From the IMG/VR virus record IMGVR_UViG_3300048561_000027, positions 146 through 64,145 of that record: a stretch of 64,000 bases of DNA. The stretch is one strand, 5' to 3'. The notes below the pieces were generated by a model. The model had not been told where the DNA came from. It did no database searches and saw only the letters and a list, made by a program, of their open reading frames with translations. This stretch comes from a virus. Lineage: Duplodnaviria; Caudoviricetes. How positions within the stretch are numbered: the first letter of the stretch is position 1; each line of letters starts with the position of its first letter. Shown here in pieces: positions 9,423 to 63,754 of the stretch. Made by a program: the position numbers and the translations under genes.

Positions 9423-9497
9423 AGGAGTTTAAATTATGCGATCATTTACAGGTCACGTTGTCGGTAAAGAACGACAATACCAAATTAGGCGGACGCT

Positions 9498-9674
9498 ATG
9501 TGTCAATCCTGTGATGTATTAGTAATAAATGGCGTATTGTGTCATGAACTAGGTTGTCCCGATAAATGGCGGGACGAAATGCGCGAATGTAAATGGTGCG
9601 GACAAGATTTTAAACCAGAATCCAGAATTGATCAGTTTTGTTCCGACGATTGCCGTGAATTCTATAATACTTAA
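9498..9674 (+). CDS. Small Cys-rich (Zn-finger-like) protein, 58 aa
   Basis: Not in ORF track; MCQSCDVLVINGVLCHELGCPDKW...CKWCGQ...FCSDDC. Confidence 0.6.
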   Translation: MCQSCDVLVINGVLCHELGCPDKWRDEMRECKWCGQDFKPESRIDQFCSDDCREFYNT

Positions 9675-9691
9675 ATAAGGATCTGCTCAAA

Positions 9692-44271: not shown

Positions 44272-44309
44272 AACGCCCTAAGGTTTCCCACCTTAGGGCG
44301 TTTTTTTTT
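44272..44309 (+). terminator. Rho-independent terminator at the convergence with nrdJ
   Basis: AACGCCCTAAGG-TTTCCCA-CCTTAGGGCGTT plus T run. Confidence 0.92.
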
Positions 44310-47300: not shown

Positions 47301-47715
47301 GAAATCCTCCTTTAAAAGTAAGTTCATATGTTTCTTGTATTCCATGATCTAAAATAGGACATGGAATCCAATTATTATTTCCATCTAATAATGTGACAAC
47401 CTGTTTAGCCACATCTTTAATTTTTATAGCCCCATATTCCTTAGTTAATATTTCAGTCTCCCCGCTTAAACAATTATTCGCGGTAGTTTTTTTTGGACTG
47501 CCAATACTGGCTTGTATTCTGCCTCCAGGTAGAAACTTTTGTTGCAAAAGTAAATTTTTTATATGTTTTCTATGATCTTCATCATCCGCTAGAGCAGCGG
47601 AAATTCTACACATGGCGTCATAGAAACTTTCCCCAACCCCGCGATACTTGGTGGCATGAATTTCTTGACTAAGTTTTGTCTGAGGTCCAAAAGATTCTAG
47701 TACAGTTTCAGTCAT
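44308..47715 (-). CDS. nrdJ: Class II (B12-dependent) ribonucleotide reductase with two inteins
   Basis: FLPGGRI, N|CFV, GGGIGYDF|S, RRGAQM, TNPCGE, APTGTIS, SSGIEP; no small subunit nearby. Confidence 0.93.
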   Translation of the reverse strand: MTETVLESFGPQTKLSQEIHATKYRGVGESFYDAMCRISAALADDEDHRKHIKNLLLQQKFLPGGRIQASIGSPKKTTANNCLSGETEILTKEYGAIKIKDVAKQVVTLLDGNNNWIPCPILDHGIQETYELTFKGGFQTTTQRSTLNHDWVHNNTNTKIKTKALFKLKRVEINDLRPTKTIKNEDQYKKGIIHGIFYGDGTIANGVYAIRICSKHEDTEKWLKEYPHTNSPSNNGDPTYYISFTKAWTNLKELPITANISSDYLLGFFRGWFLADGCVSLQPCATLCCGAEEKNWIKQWGPLVGWHSMSQTMLADQTNFGVRKKKVGNLHFKLNTLTQEDFLSTKHKDRWKTRIEKPLRWRIYGPPKNKQMETVYCPIVPTTHSFALANGIHSGNCFVSGKIDDSMLSIMDMATKAALTMRMGGGIGYDFCVSPDTKILTSNLDWVKAEDLTIGQELVGFSENLNLQKNKFKPAFVESNKSLIAEIIDVLTDKNSTKVSADHLFVVLRKKDFPHKKKGKGYKWVKARDLKEGDKIAFISKPWDIDEWKTYDAGWFAGMMDGEGWCVSQTTKTGGSKTHSGLAQNVGKVNDKILELLTKYEIPNKSYRYTNPNAIFESHRFRGTWAAARLIGICKPIRFNPKKIWEGAKLSTRSNPSATVITTKSLGAGKVFAVKTSTKTLIADGFLGHNSNLRPKGANIVTLESPASGPISFMKIYDAVCATVKSAGSRRGAQMGILNCNHPDIEEFVRAKQNTDQLTNFNISIGVYDDFMKAVFENKTYDLIFNDQIYKTIDAKALWEEIMRSTWDWAEPGVLFLDKINEYNNLWYCEDIHATNPCGEVPLPPFGTCLLGSVNLVKYITPNKVFDWDTFIADIPAIVRALDNVIDRTIYPLKEYEREQKNKRRMGIGITGLANAGEALGYPYATDKFLEFTKRVMKTLRNECYLASIDLAKEKGSFPLFDKDKFVESKFIKRLPKQIQEAIYEHGIRNSHLLSVAPTGTISLSADNVSSGIEPVFAHEYSRTIITEDGPVVEPVKDYGVNVFGVKGRTTDDISALEHLNVLTTVQYYVDQACSKTINVGDNVSWEDFKEIYKKAWQNGAKGVTTFRASGKRMGILNKTEKQPVTACLNGACEI
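45646..46422 (-). mobile_element. Intein 2 in nrdJ (259 aa)
   Basis: Begins CVSPDT, ends GHN, +1 Ser; WFAGMMDGEG motif. Confidence 0.93.
46528..47472 (-). mobile_element. Intein 1 in nrdJ (315 aa, LAGLIDADG endonuclease)
   Basis: Begins CLSGET, ends HSGN, +1 Cys (CFV); GIFYGDG and GWFLADG motifs. Confidence 0.93.
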
Positions 47716-47829
47716 TGGCTTTATTAAGTTTAGTTAGTAAAAAGACTTGTCTTGGCGTGTAAAAATTAATGTTATATGATATACAAAATTAACTTGTTTT
47801 CCAAGTTAAACTTTGATGAGGGCTTAATT

Positions 47830-48324
47830 ATGACAACGATTGTTTATAAAAATGGTGTTTTGGCTTCGGATTCAAAAATTTCCGATCCTGATTCCATGAG
47901 TTCAAATTACATGAAAAAAATTTTTAAACTTTCCGTTGCCATTCCAAACCCAGAATATGATGGTGCAAGTCTTTTAAAGACTAAAGAGTATTTAATTGGT
48001 ATTGTAGGGGATATGTATGCGGGACTGCTTTTTATTAAATGGTTTCAAACAGGCGATGATTCCACTAAAGATTTCTTGCGTAATTTAGGGGAGGATTATT
48101 TTTTCGAAGCTATCGTAGTAACTAAAGATCAAAATTTGTGTATATATAATAATTTTTTAGAGCCTCTGGAGTTGGGCAAATTAAATTTTTATGCGTTGGG
48201 ATCGGGGTCTAAAATTGCAATGGCCATGTTGGATTATGGAGCCAGTATTGAAGACACCCTTACTTATGCTAAAAAGTATGATATGAATACTGGGGGTGAC
48301 ACTCACATATTAAGTTTTACTTAG
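47830..48324 (+). CDS. HslV/proteasome-beta-like Ntn peptidase
   Basis: M-TTIV start exposing Thr1, LASDSK, ALGSG, D..TGG. Confidence 0.75.
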   Translation: MTTIVYKNGVLASDSKISDPDSMSSNYMKKIFKLSVAIPNPEYDGASLLKTKEYLIGIVGDMYAGLLFIKWFQTGDDSTKDFLRNLGEDYFFEAIVVTKDQNLCIYNNFLEPLELGKLNFYALGSGSKIAMAMLDYGASIEDTLTYAKKYDMNTGGDTHILSFT

Positions 48325-49972: not shown

Positions 49973-51202
49973 ATGACCGAAGCAAAAACCAAGAAGGAGG
50001 TTTTAGTTGATCTGATTAATGATGCAGTTTCTAAGGCCGTGCCTGAAATTGTTTCCGCTTCAATTAAATCCGCTATTGAGCCAATGCAGGCACAGCAAAC
50101 TGCTTGGATGGATAAATTAAACCGTGGTCGTAGTGAATCTCCGGAATCCGACGTTACCAAGAAGGGTCTTGGCGCGGCTCGTATTGTTCGCGCTTTAGCT
50201 GCGGGTAAAGGGGATCCTAGTCGTGCCAATCGTTGGGCTGTTAAAGCCTTAGACTCAGTTTGGCGTGATGATCTTGGTGATGCCGTAGTTAAGGCGTTAG
50301 CCGCTGGGGATCTCGATGCGGGCGGGTTCATGATTAAGCCTGAGTTTGCGACTGGTATCATTGAATTCCTGTATAATAAGACTGTTGTTCGCCGGGCCGG
50401 TCCTCAGATCCTGCCGATGAATGCGGGTACTCTTACTCTGCCAAAGCAGACAGGTAGTGCGACTGCATATTATGTTGGCGAGAATCAGACCATTACCAAG
50501 TCTCAGCCAGCGGGTGGGCAGATCGTCATGACCAGCAAGAAGCTGGCGGCTCTTGTTCCGATTAGCAATGACTTGCTCAGGTTTGATGCGGGCGAGCAGG
50601 CGGACAGGTTTGTGCGCAACGACCTCGTGCGTCGAATTGCGGTTCGGGAAGACCTGGCTTTCTTACGTGGTGATGGCACTCAGAATACGCCACGTGGTTT
50701 GCGGTATTGGGCGGCTGCGGGCAATATTACTGCATCTGCTGGGACATCTTCGGCTAATATTGAAACCGACGTTAAGGTTGCCATTAATAGTTTGGAGAGT
50801 AACAACGTAGACATTCTTGACGCCGTGTGGTTTATGGCTCCGCGCAGCAAGAATCATTTGATCAATTTACGCGATACTAACGGTAACTTGATTTACCCCT
50901 CAATGCGGTCGTCTAATCCTACTCTGTTTGATCGTCCCGTGTATACCACGAATAGTATTCCTACCAATCTTGGCGGAACAGGTTCGGAGTTGTATCTGGT
51001 TAACATGTTGGATGTAATAATCGGGGAAAGCGGGGGCTTGCAGATCGAGGTTGATTCTGGCGCGTCTTATACCGACGGTAATTCGCTGGTTTCGGCTTTC
51101 GAGAAGGATCAGACTGTGGTGCGAGCCATTGAGTTACACGACTTAGCCGTAACTCATGAACAGTCTGTGGCGGTGATCAACAACATTACGTGGGGTGCTT
51201 AA
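49973..51202 (+). CDS. Major capsid protein (HK97 fold)
   Basis: GGFMIKPE, YVGE, KKLAALVPISNDLL, EDLAFLRGDG..P.GL, L.DTNGN.I. Confidence 0.95.
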   Translation: MTEAKTKKEVLVDLINDAVSKAVPEIVSASIKSAIEPMQAQQTAWMDKLNRGRSESPESDVTKKGLGAARIVRALAAGKGDPSRANRWAVKALDSVWRDDLGDAVVKALAAGDLDAGGFMIKPEFATGIIEFLYNKTVVRRAGPQILPMNAGTLTLPKQTGSATAYYVGENQTITKSQPAGGQIVMTSKKLAALVPISNDLLRFDAGEQADRFVRNDLVRRIAVREDLAFLRGDGTQNTPRGLRYWAAAGNITASAGTSSANIETDVKVAINSLESNNVDILDAVWFMAPRSKNHLINLRDTNGNLIYPSMRSSNPTLFDRPVYTTNSIPTNLGGTGSELYLVNMLDVIIGESGGLQIEVDSGASYTDGNSLVSAFEKDQTVVRAIELHDLAVTHEQSVAVINNITWGA

Positions 51203-51285
51203 TAGCATAATTTAGAGACTTGTGAAGACTTGCGGGGCCTAAAAAGCCCCGCCTGCCTCAAGAAAGATAAAGAGGAAAATAGAAA

Positions 51286-51789
51286 ATGACAGCAATGCAA
51301 AAAGATATTGGGTCTCGAATTCTGACAGTTGGTTGTATTAACCCCATTGTATTAAATTCGAGTGTTGGGTCTGAGGATAACACGGAACAGAACGGGTTTG
51401 CCGTTGATCGGGAATTACTTAATCCGGGTCAGCCGTTAGCCTTGTCTGGTCAGGCGGCTTTGGTTTACAGCTATTCGTTAGCTGCGGCTAAAACTGTTGC
51501 TTTAACGTGGAATTTACAACATAGTTCTGCGGCTTCGGTGTGGGCTGATTTTAATGACATCAATGGTTCTACTGGACAGTCCAAAACTATTGGCACCACA
51601 TCGTCTACAGCGTCTCAAACAGGCAATGGAACCAGCCGTGCCAACTTTGATTTTAGTGGGGCCAAGCGGTATTTGCGGATGCAGTATAAGATGAATTTCT
51701 CCGCTACTGCTACGGACGATGCTGATGTTGGTGGAGTCATCGTGTTCGGCGGTTACGATACTGTACCAGCTTCCACGGCTGGGGTGTAA
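51286..51789 (+). CDS. Probable capsid-associated/decoration protein
   Basis: Immediately after MCP; GAKRYLR motif; GAGG RBS. Confidence 0.55.
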   Translation: MTAMQKDIGSRILTVGCINPIVLNSSVGSEDNTEQNGFAVDRELLNPGQPLALSGQAALVYSYSLAAAKTVALTWNLQHSSAASVWADFNDINGSTGQSKTIGTTSSTASQTGNGTSRANFDFSGAKRYLRMQYKMNFSATATDDADVGGVIVFGGYDTVPASTAGV

Positions 51790-51823
51790 AGATAGTTAAG
51801 TAGGATAGTGTGTTGTAGAGCCT

Positions 51824-51861
51824 ACCCTACATAGTGATTTATTTCGCTATGTAGGGTTTTT
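51824..51861 (+). terminator. Rho-independent terminator
   Basis: ACCCTACATAGTGA-TTTATT-TCGCTATGTAGGGT-TTTT. Confidence 0.88.
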
Positions 51862-51945
51862 GTTTTGTGTTAGAATAAAAATCAAATAGTTTATAGAGGT
51901 TTTTATGTCACAGCTTTTTTTAATCTCTGAATCCATAGTCTAGGC

Positions 51946-53112
51946 GTGTTAAACGTGGATAAGCTGTCGGGGATTCTAGGCGGGGCGGTGGTGCTTTCCG
52001 GGGGGAAGTCAGGGGGTCTGCCCAACGTCAATGCGGGTCGCTGGGATGACGAGTGCTGGCTGAATCTGAACTATACGGACATGCTCAACCCGGATTTGAA
52101 GGCCGGGGACAAGTTGATCCTGGAGAAGGGTTCGGAGCGGTGGGAGTCTTGGCCGTTGAATTCTGAAGTGTTGGAGTCCGCGATTACCTTTGCCTCGAAA
52201 CCCGCAAAGACTCAGATAAGGCTGCGCATGGCGCACAGTTCCGGGCTGAGTCTTTACCCGCAACCGTTGATTCTCCCGGAAGGGCACTCGGCTCCGGAGA
52301 ATGTGCTGGGTAGTCTCGCCGTGTATCACAATAAGGCACATCATCGTATCGGCGGGCATAACTACGGTGTTGGGAAGCACAGTCAAATCTACCGCTGGGA
52401 GTGTATCGACGCCAAAGGATTAAAAGCGTGGTGTGATCCGTGGGTGGTCGACGGCGAGGATATTGTGACCGGGCTGCCGGTGGATTTCATGAAAAAAGCC
52501 ACCTATCCGGTCATTGCGATGGGGGCTAAATCCGGGGTGGGGAGCACTTTCGGCTACACTACCGGCGGGGCGTCCAGGATTGCTTTGACTGAATCCGTAC
52601 AAGCACACGGTAGTTTGTTTGATACTCTTGTGGCGGCCTCCGGGAATACCGTGACAACCCTGCATTTGTATACAAACTGGGCGTTTTTTACCGGCACCTG
52701 CGGGGTGGCCCTATACTCAGGGGCCACACAAGGCGCTACGATGAATAGCGCCTCACTGGCCTTTGGTCCGGCCACGATTACCCCGACGGTGGAATATCCG
52801 GCGCTGGCCTGGGATACGGCTAGTGTCAATTATGCCTTATCCGCCAGCACGGAATACGCCCTCGCGGTGGGGGATACCTCGACGATATCCTATGGCGAAT
52901 TGAGTCTAATGTATGACGTCGGTGGTGCGTATGACGGCTCCCGGCAGACCTCGCAAACCCTTGGGGCAACGTGGAGTGAAAACGATCTGACTATTCAAAA
53001 GTATTCCATGTACGCCACGGTGACGGCCGGGGGTGGGGGTGGAAATGTTTTGCCCTTGCCCTTACTGAATGTTTTTAGACGTTTACAACATAATACTTTA
53101 GTTCGAATGTAA
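51946..53112 (+). CDS. Hypothetical virion-associated protein (GC-rich; start uncertain)
   Basis: 388-aa ORF in the structural operon; poly-Gly linker near C-terminus. Confidence 0.7.
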   Translation: MLNVDKLSGILGGAVVLSGGKSGGLPNVNAGRWDDECWLNLNYTDMLNPDLKAGDKLILEKGSERWESWPLNSEVLESAITFASKPAKTQIRLRMAHSSGLSLYPQPLILPEGHSAPENVLGSLAVYHNKAHHRIGGHNYGVGKHSQIYRWECIDAKGLKAWCDPWVVDGEDIVTGLPVDFMKKATYPVIAMGAKSGVGSTFGYTTGGASRIALTESVQAHGSLFDTLVAASGNTVTTLHLYTNWAFFTGTCGVALYSGATQGATMNSASLAFGPATITPTVEYPALAWDTASVNYALSASTEYALAVGDTSTISYGELSLMYDVGGAYDGSRQTSQTLGATWSENDLTIQKYSMYATVTAGGGGGNVLPLPLLNVFRRLQHNTLVRM

Positions 53113-53178
53113 ATTGTTTATATTGTAAACAATTTGTGGTAAAATAAATTCACTTAGAATCCATTAGGTATATGATTA

Positions 53179-53640
53179 ATGAGTAGAGGAGTTTATTCAG
53201 TTCATGCAAGCATTGCTGCGGTTACTACAGCTAAGACTTTATTGCAAATTAAGGCTGGAGCTAGCACCCCATTGGAAATTTTACGAGCTTGGTGTACCAA
53301 TGGAGATGTAACTGCGGATGATCAAATGGAAATACAGTTGATTAGAAAGTCCGCAGCAGCGACCGTCACAAGTTTTACCCCAATACTTTTTGATCCAAGC
53401 GATCAAGCCGCTAAAGCTGTTGGCGGGACATCCGCTACTGGGTATAATGCTAGTGCGGAGGGAACTGATGGAGATATAGTTTGGCGTGAAGCCGCTAGTG
53501 TTTTGGCCGGTTGGATTTATTTACCCACACCCGATGAACGTGCTATGGTAGCCCCTGGGGGAATTATTGCTATGAAATCTAATATTACCGTAGCAAGTAT
53601 GACAATGATTTGTGGAATAATTTTCCGAGAATTGGCTTAA
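53179..53640 (+). CDS. Hypothetical structural protein
   Basis: Ala/Thr-rich ORF in the structural operon. Confidence 0.7.
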   Translation: MSRGVYSVHASIAAVTTAKTLLQIKAGASTPLEILRAWCTNGDVTADDQMEIQLIRKSAAATVTSFTPILFDPSDQAAKAVGGTSATGYNASAEGTDGDIVWREAASVLAGWIYLPTPDERAMVAPGGIIAMKSNITVASMTMICGIIFRELA

Positions 53641-53641
53641 T

Positions 53642-54673
53642 GTGGTAGGCGTTTACAGAAAAAGACACGTTTATAGGATAAAAAAACGTCCTGTTTCATT
53701 ATTATTTCCAGGATTAACCTTTGTTAGTGTTGCCGATACCAGCAGTGGAGCCGACACACCTTCGTTATTAACTAATAGTTTTACTTTAGCCGATTCCAGC
53801 ACAGCCGTTGATTTAATTGCGGCGATTATTAATTCTTTTTCTGTAGGCGATTCTGGCAGTGGAGGGGACGTTTTATCGGCCTTAACAAATTCGTTTGTTT
53901 TAGCTGAAGCTGGTCAGGGCTCAGATAATTTATCTTCACTACTCAATTCTTTTATATTAGCGGATTCTGGAAGTGGTGTTGATTCTCCAATCAATTTCGT
54001 AATCACGTGCAATTTATCAGACTCAGGTAATGGCTCAGAAAGTCCGACATTATCAGCTAGTTTTGGAGTTCAAGATTCGTCGGCTACAGCGGAGAGTCCG
54101 GGCATTACCAATATTTTCACGTTAACAGATATCGGCAGTATTGCGGAATTAATTGATGTCATAACATCTACGTTAATTCAAATCGTCGATTCCGGCACAA
54201 CGGCTGAAACTGTAGGTTTAACCGTGCAGTTTACCCTCACTGATTTAAGTAGTGTGGTAGAGATTCTTAGTGGGGCAGTTACCGTTACCACTACTGATTT
54301 AGGAGTTGCCACCGAAGCTACGGGAATCCAGACTTCCCTACAAGTAGGCGATGCCGGATTTGAAGCGTGTAGCCCTACCGTGGCTGGTTTGATTCAAGTC
54401 TTAGAGACTAATGCCGGGATTGTTGAAACCTTCGCTTTAGCGGCATCGGTTTCTGTTGTAGACCAAAGATCAACTCAAGAAGACGTGACTTTATTAAGTG
54501 TTTTACTTAATGTTATTGACTCCGTTGGTGGTTCTGATATCATATACAAGTATGATGCCAGCGTTGATTTGGAATCAATTACGTTTGTGTTTAGTAAGCG
54601 CAAAATAACGTTTGACGTGTCGCGACGGAATTTAGATTTTACCGTGAAGAAACGAACACTAGAATTTGAATAA
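53642..54673 (+). CDS. Ser/Thr-rich repetitive virion protein (about 18-19-aa LxDSGSGxD/E repeats)
   Basis: e.g. FTLADSSTAVD, FSVGDSGSGGD, FILADSGSGVD, NLSDSGNGSE. Confidence 0.75.
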   Translation: MVGVYRKRHVYRIKKRPVSLLFPGLTFVSVADTSSGADTPSLLTNSFTLADSSTAVDLIAAIINSFSVGDSGSGGDVLSALTNSFVLAEAGQGSDNLSSLLNSFILADSGSGVDSPINFVITCNLSDSGNGSESPTLSASFGVQDSSATAESPGITNIFTLTDIGSIAELIDVITSTLIQIVDSGTTAETVGLTVQFTLTDLSSVVEILSGAVTVTTTDLGVATEATGIQTSLQVGDAGFEACSPTVAGLIQVLETNAGIVETFALAASVSVVDQRSTQEDVTLLSVLLNVIDSVGGSDIIYKYDASVDLESITFVFSKRKITFDVSRRNLDFTVKKRTLEFE

Positions 54674-55968: not shown

Positions 55969-56646
55969 ATGACGTTTGTAATTAACAATTCCACGGCAAA
56001 TCCTTATGTAGAGGATAACCGCTTAACCACGGTAGATGCTGTCGTTCAAGAACTCAATATTAGCAGTACGGGAAGTTCAGATTTTATCAATAATCTAATT
56101 AAACGCGCAAGTTTTGCGATTGAAAAGTATGTTGATCGTAAATTCCAATTAGTTGATTGTACGGAAACCCTGCAATCCGTTGGTAAACACACATTGCTGG
56201 TTACTAGACGCCCCTTGCGTTCCGTTTCCCAAATTTTATTTAATGGGTCAACTATAGCTTCTACGTCTTATGAGATCGACAATAAAGAAGCCGGTATTTT
56301 ATTTAGACCCGGAGGGTGGACTTCAACTCTGTATAAGCGGCACAACATTGAGCCCGTAACTAGCCATGTTGGTGAACGTGATTGGAGTGTGCGTTATATC
56401 GCCGGGTATGTGCTGCCAAATTCTACCGGGTATGATTCCAGCACGGCACAATTGCCCGACGATCTGGAAGCCGCGTGCATCACTACGGTCAAATCGTGGT
56501 ATCTGGATCGTAGTCATAATCCACGAATTAAAACTGAAGAGATTGGAGACGCTTCCGAAACAAGTTTTGATCTTGACGCGCAAGACTCTTTACCTCCGAT
56601 TGCAATTAGTTTATTATCACCTTGGCGTTCATTTGATCCTTTGTAA
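55969..56646 (+). CDS. Head-tail connector (gp6-like adaptor)
   Basis: IKRASFAIEKYVDR, Y.AGYV, LPDDLEAAC, LL.PWR. Confidence 0.85.
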   Translation: MTFVINNSTANPYVEDNRLTTVDAVVQELNISSTGSSDFINNLIKRASFAIEKYVDRKFQLVDCTETLQSVGKHTLLVTRRPLRSVSQILFNGSTIASTSYEIDNKEAGILFRPGGWTSTLYKRHNIEPVTSHVGERDWSVRYIAGYVLPNSTGYDSSTAQLPDDLEAACITTVKSWYLDRSHNPRIKTEEIGDASETSFDLDAQDSLPPIAISLLSPWRSFDPL

Positions 56647-56668: not shown

Positions 56669-56866
56669 ATGTTAAATTTAATAAGTGATGCTTTAGTTTT
56701 TTTAATTTCCTATCTTTTCCCCTTAGTTCAGAATTGGAAACTTACGTTAGGACTGGCCGTGGTTTGTTTGTGGCTAGTTTTTGCTCATAGCCAATGGTGG
56801 TGGGTAGGCGTGGGGTTTTTTTGCTTCACGGCTTGGTTACACTGTCTTTTTCCAAAATCTTACTAA
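56669..56866 (+). CDS. Small membrane protein
   Basis: Hydrophobic, Trp-rich; first gene of the sugar cluster. Confidence 0.55.
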   Translation: MLNLISDALVFLISYLFPLVQNWKLTLGLAVVCLWLVFAHSQWWWVGVGFFCFTAWLHCLFPKSY

Positions 56867-56889
56867 AATAACTTCTTTGTAGGTAATTT

Positions 56890-57747
56890 ATGGTTAAACT
56901 TGACAATCACGTACATTTTTGTGCGGAGATAGGTATTAATGCTTTGGGTTCCGTTGAAATCGCGAAAAGTCTTATAGATTTTTGTGTAGACGCCGGAGTT
57001 GACGTAGTGAAGTTCCAAAAGCGCACGGTTAATATTGTATACCCTAAAGAAGAGTTGGATGTAAGTCGTGACAGTCCTTATGGTGTAACCAATGGGGATT
57101 TGAAGCGACAACTTGAATTTTCGTATGAAGATTATAAAGAGATAGATCGATATTGTAATAAGAAGGGGATACAGTGGACCGCTTCCCCCTGGGATACACA
57201 AGCGGTATCTTTTTTAAATCAGTTTGATTTACCCTATATTAAAATTGCCAGTGCTACCATTACTAATAAAGAACTCCTACAGGCTTGTTGTGAGACTGGA
57301 AAACCCTTATTTGTGTCAACTGGTATGTGTGATCTTAAGTTGATAAATAAAGTTGTTAAGACTATTAATAATTTTGGTGGGGACATCCATTATATTTATC
57401 ACTGTACGTCTACTTACCCGACTGCGGATGATGAATTTAACTTATTATCTATTCCCACTCTTATTAAGACGTTTCCGAATATTAGGATCGGCTATAGTGG
57501 ACACGAACTCGGACATCTGCCTACTTTGTTAGCAGTAGCATTGGGGGCACAAGCTGTTGAACGTCACATTACCTTAAATGAAGACATGTATGGATCGGAT
57601 CAAAAGGCTAGTTATAACGTGAGTAAGCTGAAAGAATTGGTGGAAAATATTGCCAGAGTTAAGACCATGCTTGGTAATGGGGAATTGAAAATTTATGATA
57701 GTGAGATTCCTATCATGGCTAAACTTAGACGAATAAATACAATTTAA
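56890..57747 (+). CDS. neuB: NeuB-family nonulosonic acid synthase (short form, no SAF domain)
   Basis: AEIGIN, VKFQKR, ASPWD, KIASA, STGM, HCTSTYP, GYSGHE, ERHIT, SDQKAS. Confidence 0.93.
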   Translation: MVKLDNHVHFCAEIGINALGSVEIAKSLIDFCVDAGVDVVKFQKRTVNIVYPKEELDVSRDSPYGVTNGDLKRQLEFSYEDYKEIDRYCNKKGIQWTASPWDTQAVSFLNQFDLPYIKIASATITNKELLQACCETGKPLFVSTGMCDLKLINKVVKTINNFGGDIHYIYHCTSTYPTADDEFNLLSIPTLIKTFPNIRIGYSGHELGHLPTLLAVALGAQAVERHITLNEDMYGSDQKASYNVSKLKELVENIARVKTMLGNGELKIYDSEIPIMAKLRRINTI

Positions 57748-57764
57748 ATTTATGGTGTTTTATA

Positions 57765-59417
57765 ATGGCAAAATTAAAAAGTAATGAATTAAAAAGTAAT
57801 GAATTAAAAAGTGTTTCTAATCCTTCTTTTGAGGCATTTGTTGAGGGGTTAAATCAAGAACGTCGCCCCACAGTTATTAAAAATCCGACTTCTTATGTGC
57901 GGAAAAAGAAAGTGGCTATTGTTGGTTCTGCCAGCCGTACCGTTAATCAGGCTCCTTATAAAGACCCCGATTGGGAAATTTGGCAATTGGCGTGGCGTAC
58001 CGATGAGGAATGTAAATATGCCTCGCGTTTATTTGACATGCACCCAATTAATGAACAACGCTTAAAGGTGCCAAAGGATTACATTTCTGTGTTAAACAGA
58101 CGTAGTAAGACAATGCCTATAATCGGCCCAGTTGAGGATAGTAGAATTCCAGACCTGACTGTTTATCCTCTAGCTGAAGTTACGGCCTTTTTAGGTGGTG
58201 TCAGTGAATATCACAATGGGGATTATTTCATGTCCAGCATTGCCTATATGTTTGCGTTGGCAATGTATGAGGGCTATGAAGAGATTGGAATATTTGGCGT
58301 AGATTTGCTGGACAACGATGAATATTGTGTAGCCCCAGAAACTAAGGTATTACGTGCCAGCCTGATTTGGGACGAAATAAAAAATATTGAAGTTGGGGAT
58401 GACTTACTTGCGTTTGATGAAAATCCTGGACATAAAACTGGAGCCGATCATTATTATAGAAAATGGCGAGTTTCTACAGTTGACTCTGTACAGAACATAA
58501 TTCGACCCTGCTATGAAATTTTGTTAGAAAATGGTGAGAAGCTGATCTCATCAGCGGAACACAAATGGTTGACGTGGAATAATGCTGGCAATTTTAAGTG
58601 GCAACGTACTGATTTTCTACACAATCATCAAACATGTAGAGCTTCTAAATTTGTTAAAGCCATTAATGTTTGGGAAGAAGACAAGTCGTGGGAAGCCGGG
58701 TATTTAGCGGCTGCTTTTGATGGGGAGGGTTGGCTTTGTCAGGCCACTAAAAAAGATCCTTGTGATACTTATAGTTTTGATTTAGGGTTTTCTCAAAAAG
58801 ACAATCCTATGAGTGTTGAAGTGTCTAGGATTATGTCTGAAAAAGGTTTTGCGTTTAGAAAACGTCAGAAAACTGTGTCAGACGATTGTTATCAGTATCG
58901 CTTGGAGGGTTTACTGGCTACACGGTTGGAATGTCTGGGTAAAATTCGTCCCAGACGGTTGTTGGGAAAATTGGATATGGAAAAATTAGGAGTTTTTAGA
59001 AAAAAAGAAGTTGTTCCGATTAAACAAATAACTTTTCTTGGGAACCAAGAAGTTATTGCAATTAAAACAACAACAGGAACCTTTTTGGCAGAAGGGTATG
59101 CTTCTCACAATTGTCATCAAAAGCCTAATCAAGAGTATTTGATTGGTTTAGCACGTGGTATGGGGATTAAAGTATTTATACCACACGCTTCAGCTTTGGT
59201 GCGTGGAACTCACCGTTATGGATACATGAATCCTCCCGGAGATGGAGCTATTACATTAGAAGCACTGGAAAAAAAATTAATTGACTATCGCGACAAGCAT
59301 CAGCAAGCCTATACTGCTGTCTGTACTTTGGACGGAGCAATTCAAGAATTAACGGAACAAGTTAATTTTCTAAAACGTAAACGAAACGGGATTAATGTGG
59401 GAGGTTATCATGGCTGA
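57765..59417 (+). CDS. Putative glycosyltransferase-like (sialyltransferase/MptE-like Rossmann) protein containing an intein
   Basis: Extein motifs VAIVGSA, SSIAYM.ALA, IGIFGVDL; the product call is inferred from motif resemblance and context. Confidence 0.55.
   Translation: MAKLKSNELKSNELKSVSNPSFEAFVEGLNQERRPTVIKNPTSYVRKKKVAIVGSASRTVNQAPYKDPDWEIWQLAWRTDEECKYASRLFDMHPINEQRLKVPKDYISVLNRRSKTMPIIGPVEDSRIPDLTVYPLAEVTAFLGGVSEYHNGDYFMSSIAYMFALAMYEGYEEIGIFGVDLLDNDEYCVAPETKVLRASLIWDEIKNIEVGDDLLAFDENPGHKTGADHYYRKWRVSTVDSVQNIIRPCYEILLENGEKLISSAEHKWLTWNNAGNFKWQRTDFLHNHQTCRASKFVKAINVWEEDKSWEAGYLAAAFDGEGWLCQATKKDPCDTYSFDLGFSQKDNPMSVEVSRIMSEKGFAFRKRQKTVSDDCYQYRLEGLLATRLECLGKIRPRRLLGKLDMEKLGVFRKKEVVPIKQITFLGNQEVIAIKTTTGTFLAEGYASHNCHQKPNQEYLIGLARGMGIKVFIPHASALVRGTHRYGYMNPPGDGAITLEALEKKLIDYRDKHQQAYTAVCTLDGAIQELTEQVNFLKRKRNGINVGGYHG
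58326..59111 (+). mobile_element. Intein 3 (262 aa, LAGLIDADG-type)
   Basis: Begins CVAPET, ends SHN, +1 Cys; YLAAAFDGEG motif. Confidence 0.93.
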
Positions 59418-60060
59418 TTCTACATATGTGGTTGGACACAGCAAATTTGTACCTTATAAAGCTGTTGGGCAAAAGACTTGGCTTAGCGGTGACGGTTTTA
59501 AATTTGAATCTAAGATTGAAATACCCAAAGTAGCTGATAAAGGATTGAGTGAAAAATATCCAATTAAGGCTATTCTCTTTGATTTTGACGGCGTAATATC
59601 TACAGGGGATGTTTGGACAGATCAGAATGGTATTGAGTCCGTGCGTTGCTCACGCCGGGATAGTCTTGGTTTGGCGATGTTGAGAGATAAATTCCCAGAT
59701 TTAATTTTAGGAGTTATTACGTCCGAGCAAAATCCAGTAGTTAAGGTCAGGTGCGCTAAATTAAAAATACCAGTCTATATTACAGATCACACAGCAAAAT
59801 CTAAGTTTGATATTTTACAAAAACAGATCGAACAGATTGTTGGGGCTCCGGTAATTTATATTGGCGACGATCTAAATGATTTGGAGTGTATGGCTAGAAT
59901 GGACGTTATTTCTGTTTGCCCTAAAGATGCCCACCCAAAGGTTAAACAAGAAGCCGATGTAATTTTAAAACATAAAGGGGGTAAGGGAGCCATAAGAGAG
60001 CTTTGTGAACTCTTTATGGAAGGATACTTTGATAAGTATTGTTATAAATTTAAAAATTAA
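59410..60060 (+). CDS. KdsC/YrbI-family HAD phosphatase
   Basis: FDFDGV, RRDSLG, YIGDDLND, GGKGAIRE. Confidence 0.92.
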   Translation: MADSTYVVGHSKFVPYKAVGQKTWLSGDGFKFESKIEIPKVADKGLSEKYPIKAILFDFDGVISTGDVWTDQNGIESVRCSRRDSLGLAMLRDKFPDLILGVITSEQNPVVKVRCAKLKIPVYITDHTAKSKFDILQKQIEQIVGAPVIYIGDDLNDLECMARMDVISVCPKDAHPKVKQEADVILKHKGGKGAIRELCELFMEGYFDKYCYKFKN

Positions 60061-60071
60061 GAGTTATTAAA

Positions 60072-60752
60072 ATGAAAACTGTAGCAGTAGTACCAGCACG
60101 TAAGAACAGTAAAGAAATTCCAAATAAGAATTTAGTCAATCTTTGTGGAAAACCTTTAATTCAACACACCTTGGAATGTGCAATAGATAGCGGGGTAATT
60201 GATGAAATTATCGTAACGTCGGATTCCGAAGAAATTCTTCATTTTTCCAAACGGTTCGGAGCTAAATTAGTTGCCGAACCAGAAAAACCCGTGGAATGGA
60301 AGGAACATTGTATTGGAGCAGTAATGAATGCTTTAGATACTTGTCAAGTAGAGGAGGACGATAATGTTTTTCTCTTACTTCCCACAAGTCCGTTACGACA
60401 ACCAATCCACTGTATTGATGCGAGTTTTTTACTTACCTCGCCAGATCAAGCAGTTGTGGGGGTTACTAAGACGTCTCCATTTCATAGTTTACGCTATATA
60501 AATGACGACAATACGATGTTACCATTATTGGAGGTTAGAACTGCCAATGCTTTAAACATGACCAGACAGTCCGTTAGAGATTTATATCGAGTGAATGGGG
60601 CTATTTTTCTAACTCGATATAGTACACTTTTAAAATATGGAACATTTCATGTTCCCAATTCAGTACCTTTGGTTATGTTGTCTGAGCATAGTGTAGACAT
60701 AAATACACGCGATGATTTGAAATTTGCGGAAACATCTATGAGAACCAGATAA
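60072..60752 (+). CDS. neuA: CMP-N-acylneuraminate synthetase (cytidylyltransferase)
   Basis: PARKNSKEIPNKN, L.PTSPLR, NGAI, SVDINT..D. Confidence 0.92.
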   Translation: MKTVAVVPARKNSKEIPNKNLVNLCGKPLIQHTLECAIDSGVIDEIIVTSDSEEILHFSKRFGAKLVAEPEKPVEWKEHCIGAVMNALDTCQVEEDDNVFLLLPTSPLRQPIHCIDASFLLTSPDQAVVGVTKTSPFHSLRYINDDNTMLPLLEVRTANALNMTRQSVRDLYRVNGAIFLTRYSTLLKYGTFHVPNSVPLVMLSEHSVDINTRDDLKFAETSMRTR

Positions 60753-61847
60753 ATGAAAAAAGTATTTGTATGGGCAGGTTGGGGACGAAATTTTGGGGAT
60801 CTACTACTATTAGATCAGCAAGTTAAATTATTAAAACAACAGTGCCCGGAGGAACTTTTGGTCATTCCATTAAGCAGCCATAGCATTAATGGGAAAGCTC
60901 CTGTACTTACGTCTGAAATTGTCGATTACATAAATTCTGGTGATATGTTGATTATAGGGTCTGGTGGACAATTGTTACCAGATAAATCAAGGTTTGGGTT
61001 TTGGCAATTTAACATTCCCATTCAGATGATCGATGATATTAAAGTGCCCATAGTCGTATACGGAATTGGCAGTAACACGTTTGCCTATCCTGGGGATGGT
61101 GGGGGGTTAGATAGGAATGAAACAGACGTGTTTGAAACCCATTTAGCACGTGTTTGTAATCGTTCTGAATTATGTTCCGTTAGGGATTCTATAGCTTTAG
61201 ATTTGATAAAAACTAAATTGGGGGTATCCAAAACTACATTAATTGGTGATCCGGCTTTATTACTACAGCCATCTTCTTTGACCAAACCCGTTGGAATTGT
61301 TGGATTGGTTTTAGGTGGGGATCGTATTGTGGAACGGTACAGGTCTAAATCAGACTACTTAAATTTACTTGTTGATTTTGCCAAGCAGATAAAATCCTTT
61401 GTTGATGAATCTGGATTTATAAGTCAGATAAAATTAATTCCGCATAGTAGTTTATATGACGTTGAGTATTCATATATTATAGAACAATTATTACAATCAA
61501 ATGATTTTTCATTTGTTTTTGAACACGGACTTTTACCCGAAAGTGAGAATAAACTTTTACATTTACGACGATCTTATTCGGAGTGTGACTACATTATTTC
61601 AAGTAGGTGGCATGGAAATATAATCGCATCCGCGTTGGGTATACCTAATATAACTATTGGATCGATGTTAAAACAACAAGCGTTGTTCCAAGATTTAGGA
61701 ATCTTAAATTGGAATAAAGGGGAGGATTTGAATAAGATTTTAAAACAAAGCGATGTGAATCTTTGTGATGTAACTAAGAGGGTTCGGCAATTACAAACTC
61801 GTACACGTGAGTTTTCACAAGCCGTGGTGGACTTATTATGCCATTAG
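60753..61847 (+). CDS. Polysaccharide pyruvyl transferase family protein
   Basis: NFGD, IGSGG, SVRD, DPA, SSRWHG...ALGIP. Confidence 0.8.
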   Translation: MKKVFVWAGWGRNFGDLLLLDQQVKLLKQQCPEELLVIPLSSHSINGKAPVLTSEIVDYINSGDMLIIGSGGQLLPDKSRFGFWQFNIPIQMIDDIKVPIVVYGIGSNTFAYPGDGGGLDRNETDVFETHLARVCNRSELCSVRDSIALDLIKTKLGVSKTTLIGDPALLLQPSSLTKPVGIVGLVLGGDRIVERYRSKSDYLNLLVDFAKQIKSFVDESGFISQIKLIPHSSLYDVEYSYIIEQLLQSNDFSFVFEHGLLPESENKLLHLRRSYSECDYIISSRWHGNIIASALGIPNITIGSMLKQQALFQDLGILNWNKGEDLNKILKQSDVNLCDVTKRVRQLQTRTREFSQAVVDLLCH

Positions 61848-62512
61848 ACTTGATTGATGGCGTAGCAAGGTCATCTCTAGGAACTTTAAGTAGTAGAGCC
61901 ATACTTGGGGACAGCTACGCTAAAAAATTCATTGATTATTTAAATGGATTAAAAATTGTTCGCGACATGAATGGGTTTTCATTTGCTCCGGCTATCTTAC
62001 GTGGTTATATATATGATCGTTGGATTGGGGACGTAATTAGGGACAAACCAGATTTTAAAGTGTTGAATTTAGGGTGTGGTTTTTGTACGAGATATTTTTA
62101 TATTCGATCAGATACATTACAGTGGACTGAATCGGATTTACCAGACGTAATTGCTTTACGTGAAAATAGTGGGGTTTATGTAAAAGACAACCCTAATTAT
62201 AAAACTCTGGCTTTAGATTTAAACAATTTTGACTTAACTATCTTAAATAATTATGATTTGGTGGTAGCTGAAGGGTGTTTGTGTTATCTGGAAAAAGCTA
62301 GAGTTTTGGAGATAGTTGGTCATTGTAAGCATTTGATTTGTGATGTAATTGGAGATGAGCGTAAATTAGAACTGTCTAATGTTCAAAAATGGAAATATAA
62401 CTATGAGGATTTCAAACATCTTCCAATAACTAGAGAATTCAGATATACTTATTATAGTCGTGACGACAGAGTGTTAGAATTTAAACAGGTACGGGATGAA
62501 CATATCGGGTAA
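61838..62512 (+). CDS. SAM-dependent methyltransferase (LCM/TcmP-like)
   Basis: VLNLGCGFCTR, DLPDVIALR, AEGCLCYL. Confidence 0.85.
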   Translation: MPLDLIDGVARSSLGTLSSRAILGDSYAKKFIDYLNGLKIVRDMNGFSFAPAILRGYIYDRWIGDVIRDKPDFKVLNLGCGFCTRYFYIRSDTLQWTESDLPDVIALRENSGVYVKDNPNYKTLALDLNNFDLTILNNYDLVVAEGCLCYLEKARVLEIVGHCKHLICDVIGDERKLELSNVQKWKYNYEDFKHLPITREFRYTYYSRDDRVLEFKQVRDEHIG

Positions 62513-62825
62513 GCTTAACCAGCAATGCGTGTATTGGGCTCCAAGTGGTATTGATTTAGCCGGAAATCAAGGATTTGCCGCGCCGGTAAGTTTTAAGTGT
62601 AGGCATGAGGCTAAGACGGAAAAGTTCCTGAATGATAGCGGTGACGAACAGATTTCCAATAGTATTTTTTATCTAAATTCCGCAGTTGTTGCCGATGGGT
62701 TCATCATGGAGGGCAATTCTACAGCGGCCAGTCCAGTATTGATTGGGGCAGCCAATGAGATTAGGAAGGTTTTTTCCGTTCCGTCAGTAAACGCCAATCA
62801 AATTTTATATAAGGTATTGGTGTAA
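62496..62825 (+). CDS. Head closure/neck protein
   Basis: Position after the connector; typical size; W...G.D..G...F..P. Confidence 0.65.
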   Translation: MNISGKLNQQCVYWAPSGIDLAGNQGFAAPVSFKCRHEAKTEKFLNDSGDEQISNSIFYLNSAVVADGFIMEGNSTAASPVLIGAANEIRKVFSVPSVNANQILYKVLV

Positions 62826-63310
62826 TGCAGCAACGCTTTGTAATTAAAGATTCCGCGTCAGCCAGTCAAGCCGCTATCGGCTTGGGTTTAATTGCTAATT
62901 CCATTGTTAAAGATGTTGATTTAGCCATGAAACCCGCCTTGGATCAATTTGGAAAGGATGTATTAAATGTCACCACTCCTTATGTGCCGATGAAAACGGG
63001 CGCATTGCGTAATTCAGCTAAATTTTTTACTACTAAAGCGGGCTCATATTTGTGGCAACTTTTGGTAAGTTACGGCGGTGTTGCTCCGTCGTTCCCGCAG
63101 ATTATAGACGATATGGAAGTTATGGGGACCGAGCCTAAAGGGGAAGTTACCTATGCTGTCGAACGTCATGAAGTACCAGCTAAGGTTTATTCTACTCCAG
63201 GCACGGGCATTAAGTATTTAGAATTTGGCGGTTTTAAGTCAATTCCACTAGCTTTGATTCAATTTAGAAGTTTTATTACGGCTAGGATGTCTAAATTTCG
63301 GATTAATTAA
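62825..63310 (+). CDS. Neck/minor capsid protein (HK97 gp10-like)
   Basis: YVP.KTG.LR.S, YA...HE, G.KYLE. Confidence 0.75.
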   Translation: MQQRFVIKDSASASQAAIGLGLIANSIVKDVDLAMKPALDQFGKDVLNVTTPYVPMKTGALRNSAKFFTTKAGSYLWQLLVSYGGVAPSFPQIIDDMEVMGTEPKGEVTYAVERHEVPAKVYSTPGTGIKYLEFGGFKSIPLALIQFRSFITARMSKFRIN

Positions 63311-63754
63311 ATGGCCTTACCTACGATTCCATCTATTGATTTACGTAGCATTTTAATGACTGCCGATGTTGGCAGCACTACGTTAACCGGGGCGGATTGG
63401 GAAGTCTATTCTGGCAATACTCCGGCTAGTCCGAACAGATGTATCGCGCTATATGACTTTGGGGGCATTCCGAATCCAAAATGGTTACTTGATGAAGTCT
63501 TTGTGGCAATTAGAGTGCGGGGCAATAAATTAGATTACGTTAATACCGCAACTAAGATACAGGCCGTTAAGGATGTATTATCTGGACTAGCCGAAACTAC
63601 GGTTAATAATTCTAAATATAAGGGGTGTATCATCACCAGAGACATATTTTTTGAGGGTTACGATGATAACAATCGTCCTGTATTTACTCTGGATTGTAAA
63701 TTTTGGAGGGAACCCACTAATTCCAGCACGGAAGGAAATCGTACTGCATTGTAA
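63311..63754 (+). CDS. Tail terminator/minor capsid protein
   Basis: D.NNRP.F motif; position before tail tube. Confidence 0.75.
   Translation: MALPTIPSIDLRSILMTADVGSTTLTGADWEVYSGNTPASPNRCIALYDFGGIPNPKWLLDEVFVAIRVRGNKLDYVNTATKIQAVKDVLSGLAETTVNNSKYKGCIITRDIFFEGYDDNNRPVFTLDCKFWREPTNSSTEGNRTAL

Follow-up and report, generated by a model that had tools for sequence, protein, structure and literature searches.

The window, a 64-kb stretch of the record of an uncultured tailed phage, holds a six-gene sugar cluster surrounded by head and neck genes. The six co-oriented genes are packed tightly, with the head-tail adaptor gene upstream and neck and tail-terminator genes downstream, and the locus reads as follows:

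55969-56646, + strand: head-tail adaptor (phrog_442, E 6e-23; weak PF05135), the upstream boundary of the cluster
56669-56866, + strand: putative 65-aa Trp-rich hydrophobic protein, from the ORF list
56890-57747, + strand: NeuB-family nonulosonate (possibly 9-phosphate) synthase, 285 aa, without SAF domain (PF03102, E 3e-70)
57765-58325, + strand: N-extein (aa 1-187) of a transferase with a predicted sialyltransferase/Maf fold
58326-59111, + strand: intein, 262 aa (Cys1, Ser-x-x-His block B, LAGLIDADG motif, terminal His-Asn, +1 Cys)
59112-59417, + strand: C-extein (aa 450-550), ending in a long C-terminal helix
59395-60060, + strand: C0-type HAD phosphatase, KdsC/Kdn-9-P phosphatase-like (both models E about 1e-24)
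60072-60752, + strand: CMP-nonulosonate synthetase, a NeuA/PseF-like cytidylyltransferase (PF02348; PseF model E 2e-28)
60753-61847, + strand: polysaccharide pyruvyl transferase family protein, PS_pyruv_trans (PF04230, E 3e-27)
61838-62512, + strand: class I SAM methyltransferase, LCM-like, of the carboxyl/O-methyltransferase family (weak PF04072, TehB)
62496-63754, + strand: neck genes, comprising phrog_797 (function unknown), a minor-capsid-like gene and a tail terminator, the downstream boundary

Layout of the cluster

All six genes listed in the preliminary description were confirmed at their coordinates on the plus strand, together with their overlapping or abutting junctions: by the coordinates, three junctions leave 17, 11 and 0 nt between genes and three overlap by 23, 10 and 17 nt. 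A terminator scan inside the cluster found no convincing one. The span described also takes in the unannotated 65-aa ORF, which has no family matches and lacks a counterpart in the relative phage L002. The adaptor gene stands as the upstream neighbour, while the 'head-closure gene' proposed downstream owes that name to its position only. In L002, an adaptor, NeuB, cytidylyltransferase, pyruvyltransferase and methyltransferase follow each other in the same order, with proteins 33-52% identical to those studied here. Since this relative keeps the order at the same place after the adaptor gene, the arrangement is old, and the earlier notion that the cluster had been inserted is doubtful.

Enzymes of the sugar pathway

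The NeuB protein belongs to its family by a wide score (PF03102, 236.7 bits; cut-off 22.1) and falls below the equivalog cut-offs for both the N-acetylneuraminate synthase NeuB (TIGR03569, 226.9 bits against 399.65) and the pseudaminate synthase PseI (TIGR03586, 171 bits against 340.25); no PHROG family matched it. It stops at 285 aa and has no SAF domain, as is true of the entire 284-aa NeuB subfamily, the Streptomyces and Motiliproteus genes included. Counterparts of NmNeuB residues E25, K53, Q55, K129, S154, S213, H215, E234, H236 and D247 are retained, and among these are the metal and PEP ligands (counterparts of H215, H236, E25, K53 and K129). The unusual motif AEIGINALG, pointed out earlier, is real: the counterpart of NmNeuB H30 is Ala, at a position where about 110 of the 120 closest homologues have His and only 5 lack it. 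The earlier hint that this change marks an atypical substrate gains no support here.

The HAD phosphatase has intact DxD (DFDG) and GDDxND (GDDLND) motifs and matches the Kdn-9-P phosphatase model (E 4.5e-24) and the BT1713 structures (E 5e-15); the KdsC and Kdn-9-P phosphatase models score it equally, and against TIGR01670 and NF058599 it reaches 78.9-88.5 bits, under cut-offs of 107-208. The cytidylyltransferase passes PF02348 (CTP_transf_3, 67 bits; cut-off 22.6) and falls short of the PseF equivalog cut-off; its best solved match is the N. meningitidis CMP-NeuAc synthetase (1eyr, E 7e-25), over residues 3-222, that is, full length. The pyruvyl transferase covers positions 1-277 of the 280 in PF04230 (96.6 bits; cut-off 25.3), and no solved structure related to it by sequence was found. 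Enzymes of this kind normally use polysaccharide or lipid-linked acceptors. The last gene, kept in L002, had been called an O-methyltransferase; a methyltransferase gene is indeed there, but the finer label comes from weak LCM family similarity (PF04072, 17.8 bits, below the cut-off of 22.3; in Atlas, feature score 0.95 with LCM accounting for 28 of 30 feature matches, structure TM 0.80). All four sugar enzymes score under curated equivalog cut-offs, and their substrates are therefore uncertain.

In 75-78 of 80 bacterial loci of the closest NeuB homologues, mostly from Streptomyces, the NeuB, HAD and cytidylyltransferase genes lie side by side, and the set matches the published Kdn-9-P route (PMC6200933), in agreement with the earlier proposal that this triad leads to a CMP-activated Kdn/Neu-type sugar. 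Streptomyces walls bear Kdn polymers, some of them methylated (PMC11481543). No PseB/LegB-type, PseC-type or NeuC-type gene was found in the record, which is ~66% complete, so that further sugar genes may exist. A phage-borne short pathway to an activated sialic-acid-like sugar is thus well supported, and it is accompanied by an intein-interrupted, sialyltransferase-shaped enzyme.

A bacterial counterpart beside flagellin genes

The closest cellular NeuB, 57% identical, comes from Motiliproteus sediminis, where the gene order is FleQ/FleS/FleR, methyltransferase, NeuB, pyruvyl transferase, HAD, CMP synthetase, Maf, flagellin, FliD and flagellin. This locus reads as a flagellin glycosylation island, and Maf holds in it the slot equivalent to that of the phage transferase. 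In Stappia, flagellin genes adjoin a NeuB, pyruvyl transferase, methyltransferase and cytidylyltransferase set, and the pyruvyl transferase has homologues whose genes directly adjoin NeuB in Motiliproteus, Pelagibius and Stappia.

An intein-split transferase with a sialyltransferase-like fold

The second gene, a 550-aa ORF (57765-59417) previously described as GT-like, encodes a 288-aa enzyme interrupted by a 262-aa LAGLIDADG intein. The intein had been overlooked before. It cleanly divides the family profile match and has all canonical splice residues, which identifies it as an intein; the intein part of NF038136 matches it at E 1.7e-14, and it is related to the phage's own RNR intein (E 2e-19). 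A single LAGLIDADG motif was seen, so its endonuclease activity is uncertain. None of the 23 conserved positions is lost in the spliced extein, which fits the family profile as a single piece (E 1e-90). A homologue without the intein, P0002, is 91% identical in the N-extein and 85% identical across the full extein.

The intein interrupts the transferase at its most conserved motif. This location, together with the otherwise common His of NeuB, could speak for a decaying or inactive system, in which a selfish intein breaks the transferase while the His-to-Ala change and the missing SAF domain cripple NeuB. We find this very improbable, given six open, tightly packed frames, an intein with every canonical splice residue, conserved extein positions all retained, metal and PEP ligands of NeuB in place, and a SAF domain that is missing throughout the subfamily.

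The structure model of the intein-less homologue (pLDDT 91) found only sialyltransferases, CstII and CstI, as its top Foldseek matches (E 7e-6 to 1e-4, probability 1.00). Structure comparison gave Z scores of 10.0 for Maf (5mu5), 9.9 for CstI, 9.7 for an MptE-type pyrophosphokinase (HPPK), 8.9 for SteA and 6-7 for thiamine pyrophosphokinases. The model indicates a modified GT-A sialyltransferase fold; a fold unrelated to glycosyltransferases, which would have undermined the earlier assignment, is not what was found, as the modelled extein resembles Maf, CstI and CstII. By sequence, neither the transferase nor P0002 matches PF06002 (CST-I), and the transferase has no significant match to PF01973 (Maf/MptE-like) and no detectable PF20157 (Maf N-terminal domain) in its 288 aa; hhalign against the Motiliproteus Maf gave a probability of 0.9%, so that sequence homology is not demonstrable. 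CST-I and MptE-like are nonetheless the commonest weak Pfam matches among 147 family members (6 for PF06002, best E 0.0057, and 4 for PF01973).

A large family linked to capsid genes

When clustered at 50% identity, the transferase family forms about 4,900 clusters, and it has no Pfam model; deposited phage genomes gave one match, a Microcystis phage gene annotated as a methyltransferase. Relatives were located in 49 viral loci, where the two genes upstream are usually a capsid-sized ORF and then one of roughly 150 aa, and major head protein predominates among the PHROG annotations of the neighbours. The family gene adjoins the major capsid gene in dozens of viral contigs, and in three loci (L001-L003) the order is major capsid protein (MCP), cement protein, transferase. 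In the window, 6.5 kb separate the transferase gene from that of the MCP, and the two are not adjacent. NeuB or a cytidylyltransferase flanks the transferase gene in about 10 of the 49 loci; NeuB lay elsewhere in the record in two of five further records examined and is absent from some transferase-bearing records, including the complete Microcystis phage genome.

These data bear on whether the 288-aa extein is a glycosyltransferase at all. It might instead be an MptE/thiamine-pyrophosphokinase-like, nucleotide-dependent enzyme of head assembly, with the CMP-sugar going to a host transferase or never onto protein. The fold is common to MptE HPPK, SteA and thiamine pyrophosphokinases, with the MptE-type score tied with those of Maf and CstI; all sequence family assignments are below significance, and some phages have the transferase gene without NeuB. 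Yet the top Foldseek matches are exclusively sialyltransferases, viral contigs repeatedly pair the gene with NeuB and CMP-synthetase genes, it lies here between NeuB and the phosphatase, and Maf fills the equivalent slot in Motiliproteus, all of which makes such an enzyme quite improbable.

It is extremely improbable that the CMP-sugar modifies the phage DNA or another non-protein molecule, as the family is linked to capsid genes and not to replication genes. We know of no nonulosonate modification of DNA. The phage does carry thymidylate-synthase-like and other nucleotide-metabolism genes, and phage DNA is known to carry diverse sugar modifications (PMC13326640).

Upstream of the cluster, three proteins come into question as acceptors of the sugar:

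49973-51202, + strand: major capsid protein, HK97 type, a possible acceptor (PF05065, E 8e-53; phrog_617, phrog_10)
51286-51789, + strand: Bbp16-like capsid cement/decoration protein with a Ser/Thr-rich patch, a candidate acceptor (Atlas)
53642-54673, + strand: Ser/Thr-rich (25%) protein with a 19-residue repeat, a second candidate acceptor (composition, repeat spacing)

The Bbp16-like protein compares with Bbp16 (PF21190) clusters in Atlas at a feature score of 0.96 and a structure TM of 0.78, and its homologues sit between the MCP and transferase genes in L001-L003. A strong terminator lies at 51824-51857. The repeat protein has no Pfam or PHROG match. The cement protein would be the favoured acceptor, with the MCP and the repeat protein as alternatives.

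Virion or host as the target

During infection, the cluster might act not on the virion but on a host structure (flagellin, pili, LPS or capsule); this could block superinfection by other phages or keep progeny off debris. The closest cellular cassettes do belong to flagellin or polysaccharide loci, and polysaccharides are the usual acceptors of pyruvyl transferases. Published work on Acinetobacter describes prophage genes by which the nonulosonic acids of the host capsule are remodelled (PMC12053666, PMC6586298). However, no flippase, polymerase, lipid-carrier transferase or any further membrane enzyme is encoded in the cluster, which lies within the late head-neck gene string and itself shows no internal terminator, and the transferase family adjoins capsid genes in many unrelated phages. 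Lysogenic conversion is unlikely, too, as no integrase was found in the ~66% complete record. We therefore regard a host target as unlikely, though not far-fetched. Decoration of the virion, as suggested in the preliminary description, has strong circumstantial support from the capsid-gene linkage in many phages and from the flagellin-island counterpart, and we infer it on these grounds. The roles put forward along with it, namely shielding, receptor mimicry or exclusion of co-infecting phages, are speculative.

Discussion

A matching enzyme set presumably decorates flagellin in a marine bacterium, and by analogy the phage probably coats one of its capsid proteins with sugar. Our main reading, to which we give a probability of about 0.6, is that a flagellin (Maf)-type protein glycosylation system has been redirected to the virion. 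The gene identities, intact motifs, fold, intein anatomy and synteny described above are observations; judging from enzyme families and gene context, the steps may run as follows. NeuB would join PEP to a hexose phosphate supplied by the host, with mannose-6-phosphate as the likeliest one, and so form a Kdn-9-P-type nonulosonate 9-phosphate, from which the KdsC-like HAD enzyme would take off the phosphate to give a Kdn-like sugar, and the NeuA-like enzyme would convert this to a CMP-sugar. The pyruvyl transferase and the LCM-like methyltransferase would tailor either the sugar or the attached glycan. The 550-aa precursor would splice out its intein to yield a soluble 288-aa enzyme of the sialyltransferase/Maf fold, which may then, while the late genes are expressed, move the acidic sugar onto Ser/Thr residues of a protein on the capsid surface. 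The identity of the sugar, the order of tailoring, the acceptor and the biological benefit are likewise proposed from this context. A fuller picture, which we offer tentatively, is that of a lytic marine-type phage that turns mannose-6-phosphate into a pyruvylated and/or methyl-esterified Kdn-class sugar on its cement protein, using a splicing-activated minimal Maf-like enzyme from a captured flagellin system and a large, unnamed capsid-linked family.

We found no description of this kind of phage system in the literature. New here are the intein-split transferase, its fold match, the capsid-linked family, the flagellin-island counterpart in Motiliproteus and the triad conserved in Streptomyces. 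If the main reading is true, tailed phages join giant viruses as makers of their own sialic-acid-like sugars, and phage virion glycosylation, shown so far in mycobacteriophages with ordinary sugars, extends to phage-made acidic nine-carbon sugars. Naming the transferase family would lead to the re-annotation of thousands of phage genes, because the family is very large, has no Pfam model and includes a Microcystis member labelled as a methyltransferase. A negative, protease- and lectin-relevant capsid coat would bear on phage stability and stickiness in seawater or mucus, as well as on immune recognition of therapeutic phages and the chemistry of phage display. M. sediminis offers a tractable cellular model for the short pathway, which, like the pyruvyl transferase, is uncharacterised there.

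Among known systems, the closest are the Maf flagellin O-glycosylation islands of Campylobacter, Helicobacter, Aeromonas and Magnetospirillum (PDB 5MU5), which likewise place a soluble, cytoplasmic CMP-nonulosonate pathway beside a Maf-fold transferase and a structural-protein acceptor; the island of M. sediminis HS6 shares the methyltransferase, NeuB, pyruvyl transferase, HAD and cytidylyltransferase. Unlike Maf, the phage enzyme consists of one minimal domain of 288 aa without the N-terminal PF20157 or the C-terminal acceptor-binding domain, its gene bears an intein, and its presumed acceptor is a capsid protein rather than flagellin. CstI and CstII of Campylobacter jejuni (GT42) resemble it in fold and in the Gly/Ser-rich loop after the first strand, and use a CMP-nonulosonate donor, the donor type proposed for the phage transferase; yet identity is 12-16%, there is no Pfam-level membership, and these enzymes sialylate lipooligosaccharide, not protein. 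The nearest pathway is the Kdn-9-phosphate route of Bacteroides thetaiotaomicron (BT1713-1715) and Prymnesium parvum (PMC6200933), with its NeuB-family synthase, C0 HAD phosphatase and CMP synthetase and without amino-sugar steps; the phage cluster differs in its two extra tailoring enzymes and in a HAD protein below the Kdn-9-P model cut-off. In mycobacteriophages (Che8, Corndog and others), phage-encoded transferases in or near the structural genes glycosylate capsid and tail proteins. These are reportedly ordinary nucleotide-sugar glycosyltransferases that draw on host sugar donors, whereas the phage described here brings its own acidic nine-carbon sugar pathway and an enzyme with a predicted sialyltransferase fold.

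Genomic setting of the cluster

Nearly the entire 64,145-bp linear virus record is covered by the window, and a 98,483-bp contig also records an identical NeuB protein. The record starts with genes for the small terminase, the large terminase and the portal. At the right-hand end, all on the + strand, the gene for an HslV-like peptidase is followed by those for the prohead protease/scaffold, the HK97-type major capsid protein (MCP) and a 167-aa protein, then by six ORFs without assignment, the head-tail adaptor and the six-gene cluster, beyond which lie phrog_797, a minor-capsid-like protein and the tail terminator. All six cluster genes of the preliminary description were recovered at their places by the ORF list and family searches, and their junctions are as tight as claimed, with gaps of 0-17 nt or overlaps of 10-23 nt calculated from the ORF coordinates. 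Deposited phage genomes gave no nucleotide match to the cluster, and no tyrosine integrase was found in the record, which is ~66% complete according to CheckV.

Features of the head and neck region
49973-51202, + strand, HK97-type major capsid protein
53642-54673, + strand, Ser/Thr-rich repeat protein of 343 aa (25% Ser+Thr, at least four repeats of 19 residues, no family match)
55969-56646, + strand, head-tail adaptor

The cluster had also been described as inserted into the neck operon. A recent insertion, however, is contradicted by the viral locus L002, which encodes proteins 33-52% identical to those of the window and holds the adaptor, NeuB, cytidylyltransferase, pyruvyl transferase and methyltransferase genes in the same order and at the same place. 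No HAD homologue was detected in L002 by tblastn.

Several other properties of this region were recorded. The HslV-family peptidase gene (phrog_1040; 47776-48324) lies immediately 5' of the prohead protease/scaffold gene. The G+C content is 0.475-0.485 at 50001-54000, against 0.35-0.39 on both sides, and this stretch comprises the genes for the MCP and the 167-aa protein together with three unassigned ORFs (51946-53112, 53179-53640 and 53642-54673). A scan of 47.5-64 kb returned one strong intrinsic terminator, with a 14-bp stem, at 51824-51857, directly 3' of the gene for the 167-aa protein, and none inside the cluster; the position of this terminator suggests that the MCP and the 167-aa protein are expressed more than the downstream genes. 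Between the adaptor and NeuB, the ORF at 56669-56866 encodes 65 very hydrophobic, Trp-rich residues with no family match and no counterpart in the syntenic L002, and it may either code for a small membrane protein or be a spacer without coding function.

Enzymes and proposed pathway

NeuB scores 236.7 bits against PF03102, has no PHROG family match and, by alignment, keeps the counterparts of N. meningitidis E25, K53, Q55, K129, S154, S213, H215, E234, H236 and D247. Its AEIGINALG motif, singled out earlier against the usual AEIGINHNG, is real: the His replaced here by Ala is present in about 110 of the 120 closest homologues and absent in five. The HAD protein, which carries DxD and GDDxND motifs, is matched equally by the KdsC and Kdn-9-P phosphatase models (E about 1e-24), and the N. 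meningitidis CMP-NeuAc synthetase can be aligned to the whole length of the cytidylyltransferase (E 7e-25). The pyruvyl transferase is above the Pfam cut-off (96.6 bits), and a sequence search among solved structures found nothing for it. The last gene encodes a class I methyltransferase with a weak Pfam match to LCM; 28 of its 30 feature neighbours in the protein atlas are LCM proteins (structure TM 0.80), and sequence comparison with solved structures gave only weak TehB-type matches.

Genes for a PseB/LegB-type dehydratase, a PseC-type aminotransferase or a NeuC-type epimerase were not found in the record, which points to a host metabolite as the precursor. The presence of a KdsC/Kdn-9-P-type phosphatase, in turn, makes sense only if the product of the synthase is phosphorylated. 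By analogy, the most economical fit for the cluster would be the published three-enzyme route from Man-6-P and PEP through Kdn-9-P and Kdn to CMP-Kdn (PMC6200933), in which NeuB would convert host Man-6-P and PEP to Kdn-9-P, the HAD phosphatase would yield Kdn and the cytidylyltransferase would produce CMP-Kdn. The pyruvyl transferase gene travels with NeuB in L002 and in three marine bacteria, and it therefore appears to be part of the chemistry of the sugar, not a stray polysaccharide gene. This enzyme and the LCM-type methyltransferase would modify the sugar or the glycan once attached; as LCM-type enzymes typically methylate carboxyl groups, a methyl ester may be formed. Finally, the spliced transferase would place the sugar on a virion protein; use of the CMP-sugar for DNA modification is considered less likely.

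An intein in the transferase gene

A radical SAM model that includes an intein matches the 550-aa product with its intein portion (E 1.7e-14). Read through, the sequence of this product consists of residues 1-187 as the N-extein, an intein of 262 residues and a C-extein that starts with Cys.

58326-59111, + strand, intein (Cys start, Ser-x-x-His block B, one LAGLIDADG-type motif, His-Asn end)

The metagenomic homologue P0002 (285 aa) lacks exactly this insert and is 91% identical in the N-extein. The transferase-family profile matches the window ORF as two abutting pieces, and the two exteins, joined in silico, give a 288-aa product that retains all 23 positions at which the family shows little or no variation; that the cluster is an inactive relic is regarded as one of the less likely explanations. 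The intein is located in the most conserved motif of the family, G-V-D-x(4-6)-E-Y-x-x-Q-K/R-P. Homologous inteins (~40% identical) are present in the distant family members L035, L043, L044, L047 and P0124, where they lie three residues upstream, before S/T-E-Y and with Ser/Thr at +1, whereas the window intein sits after D-E-Y with Cys at +1. This difference in sites indicates that the same motif has been invaded at two neighbouring points.

Homology also links the transferase intein to the second of the inteins in the ribonucleotide reductase of this phage, at an identity of only 26% (E 2e-19). The large subunit of that enzyme (1135 aa; 44308-47715, - strand) carries inteins: the matching one spans residues 432-690, with a Cys start and a His-Asn end, and a further insert, again with Cys first, starts at about residue 82 and is accompanied by a LAGLIDADG_3 match at 263-282.

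Fold of the spliced transferase

Neither the extein nor its homologues were assigned to any family by Pfam, PHROG or NCBIfam scans, although the family itself is very large, with 4,906 clusters at 50% identity for E up to 0.001 and 1,205 for E up to 1e-30. A metagenome scan with P0002 returned only two loci, distant or fragmentary. An AlphaFold model of P0002 built from five sequences was poor (pLDDT 66), and the model from 147 sequences (pLDDT 91.4, pTM 0.81) was used instead. With Foldseek, its best solved matches were all sialyltransferases (probability 1.00, E 7e-6 to 1e-3), in the order CstII, CstI, an enzyme of Pasteurella and, from human, ST6GalNAc2 and ST8SiaIII. An independent all-against-all aligner put the Maf flagellin glycosyltransferase 5MU5 at the top (Z 10.0), followed by CstI (9.9), an MptE-type pyrophosphokinase (9.7) and SteA (8.9), and the two Pfam families to which the largest numbers of members showed weak matches were CST-I (6 of 147) and MptE-like (4 of 147). 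From these three lines of evidence, the fold is therefore that of the sialyltransferase/Maf/MptE superfamily. This is compatible with the former label of a GT-like protein, but by fold alone a pyrophosphokinase would look the same as a transferase. For the extein, a role other than that of a transferase is judged less likely.

Association with capsid genes and candidate acceptors

Relatives of the transferase are encoded on 49 IMG/VR contigs, and in most of these loci the two genes 5' of it are a capsid-sized ORF and an ORF of ~120-170 aa. PHROG families assigned to 122 neighbour ORFs are mostly those of major head proteins, with large terminase, head protease and adaptor families next. L001-L003, which are the three closest loci, encode the protease, the MCP, a homologue of the 167-aa protein of the window and the transferase, in that order. 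Local iterative searches recognized this small protein only in L001-L003, and the window MCP only in L001-L003 and L015; the small ORFs preceding the transferase gene in the other loci may belong to different families.

A NeuB or CMP-synthetase homologue was found within the fetched flanks of ~10 of the 49 loci, which are often short, and NeuB is present elsewhere in the record in two of five further cases. Some transferase-carrying records have no NeuB, such as that of the complete Microcystis phage Mvi-Yong1342-1 (L132; PP496355.1), in which a family member (8905-9708, 35% identical) lies just 5' of terS, terL and portal and is annotated, probably wrongly, as a 'type 11 methyltransferase'. 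The same record contains a 'sugar O-methyltransferase'.

The main rival explanation is that the cluster modifies a structure of the host surface and not the virion, and prophage enzymes remodelling capsular nonulosonic acids have indeed been published (PMC12053666, PMC6586298). However, no membrane or lipid-carrier enzyme is part of the cluster, its transferase family is linked to capsid genes, and it lies in a late operon of a phage for which no integrase was detected. For modification of the virion, the favoured candidate acceptor is the 167-aa protein, because of the conserved adjacency of its gene to the transferase gene, also seen in L002. This protein resembles Bbp16, the capsid cement protein of Bordetella phage BPP-1 (atlas score 0.96, TM 0.78), and has a Ser/Thr-rich patch. 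The MCP and the 343-aa Ser/Thr-rich protein are alternative candidates; the 19-residue repeat of the latter is visible in the protein only, with no tandem repeats in the DNA of 51.9-56.0 kb.

Bacterial counterparts and comparison with known systems

The window NeuB belongs to a SAF-less subfamily of ~284 aa. Among the best 80 bacterial NeuB loci, mostly from Streptomyces (NeuB 49-50% identical), a cytidylyltransferase is encoded in 78 and a HAD protein in 75, usually adjacent. Streptomyces walls carry Kdn-containing teichulosonic acid, sometimes methylated (PMC11481543), and the NeuB/HAD/cytidylyltransferase operon of these bacteria is a candidate Kdn operon.

Among cellular NeuB proteins, the nearest (57% identical) is that of Motiliproteus sediminis HS6. 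Its locus (L052, 8859-20784) encodes a FleQ-like regulator, a histidine kinase, a second sigma-54 regulator, a methyltransferase, NeuB, a pyruvyl transferase, a HAD protein, a cytidylyltransferase, Maf (PF20157 and PF01973), flagellin, FliD and another flagellin. Judged by its gene content, this is a flagellin O-glycosylation island with the enzyme set of the phage cluster, and it suggests that some flagella carry Kdn-type or pyruvylated nonulosonates; no description of it was found in the literature. The Stappia locus groups NeuB with genes for a pyruvyl transferase, a methyltransferase and a cytidylyltransferase, with flagellin genes and a TPR protein on the flanks, and the Pelagibius NeuB has a polysaccharide-type context. 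The phage transferase family was found in none of these bacterial loci. Neither the Maf nor the flagellin of Motiliproteus had a BLAST counterpart in the phage loci or in the remaining bacterial ones, and the profile of the phage transferase family did not match this Maf significantly, the sole alignment being on a G-x-D-L motif.

When the literature was searched for nonulosonates on phage virions, the papers retrieved dealt with prophage enzymes that act on the host or were unrelated. No paper was found that describes a nonulosonate pathway encoded by a phage and coupled to a capsid-linked sialyltransferase-like enzyme. Glycosylated phage virions have their published precedent in mycobacteriophages. 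The known kinds to which the cluster would belong are flagellin-type nonulosonate O-glycosylation and phage virion glycosylation; particular to it are a short route that depends on a phosphatase, genes for pyruvyl and methyl tailoring, an intein in the core motif of the transferase, three residues away from the site used in its relatives, and a direct correspondence to a flagellin glycosylation island of a bacterium.
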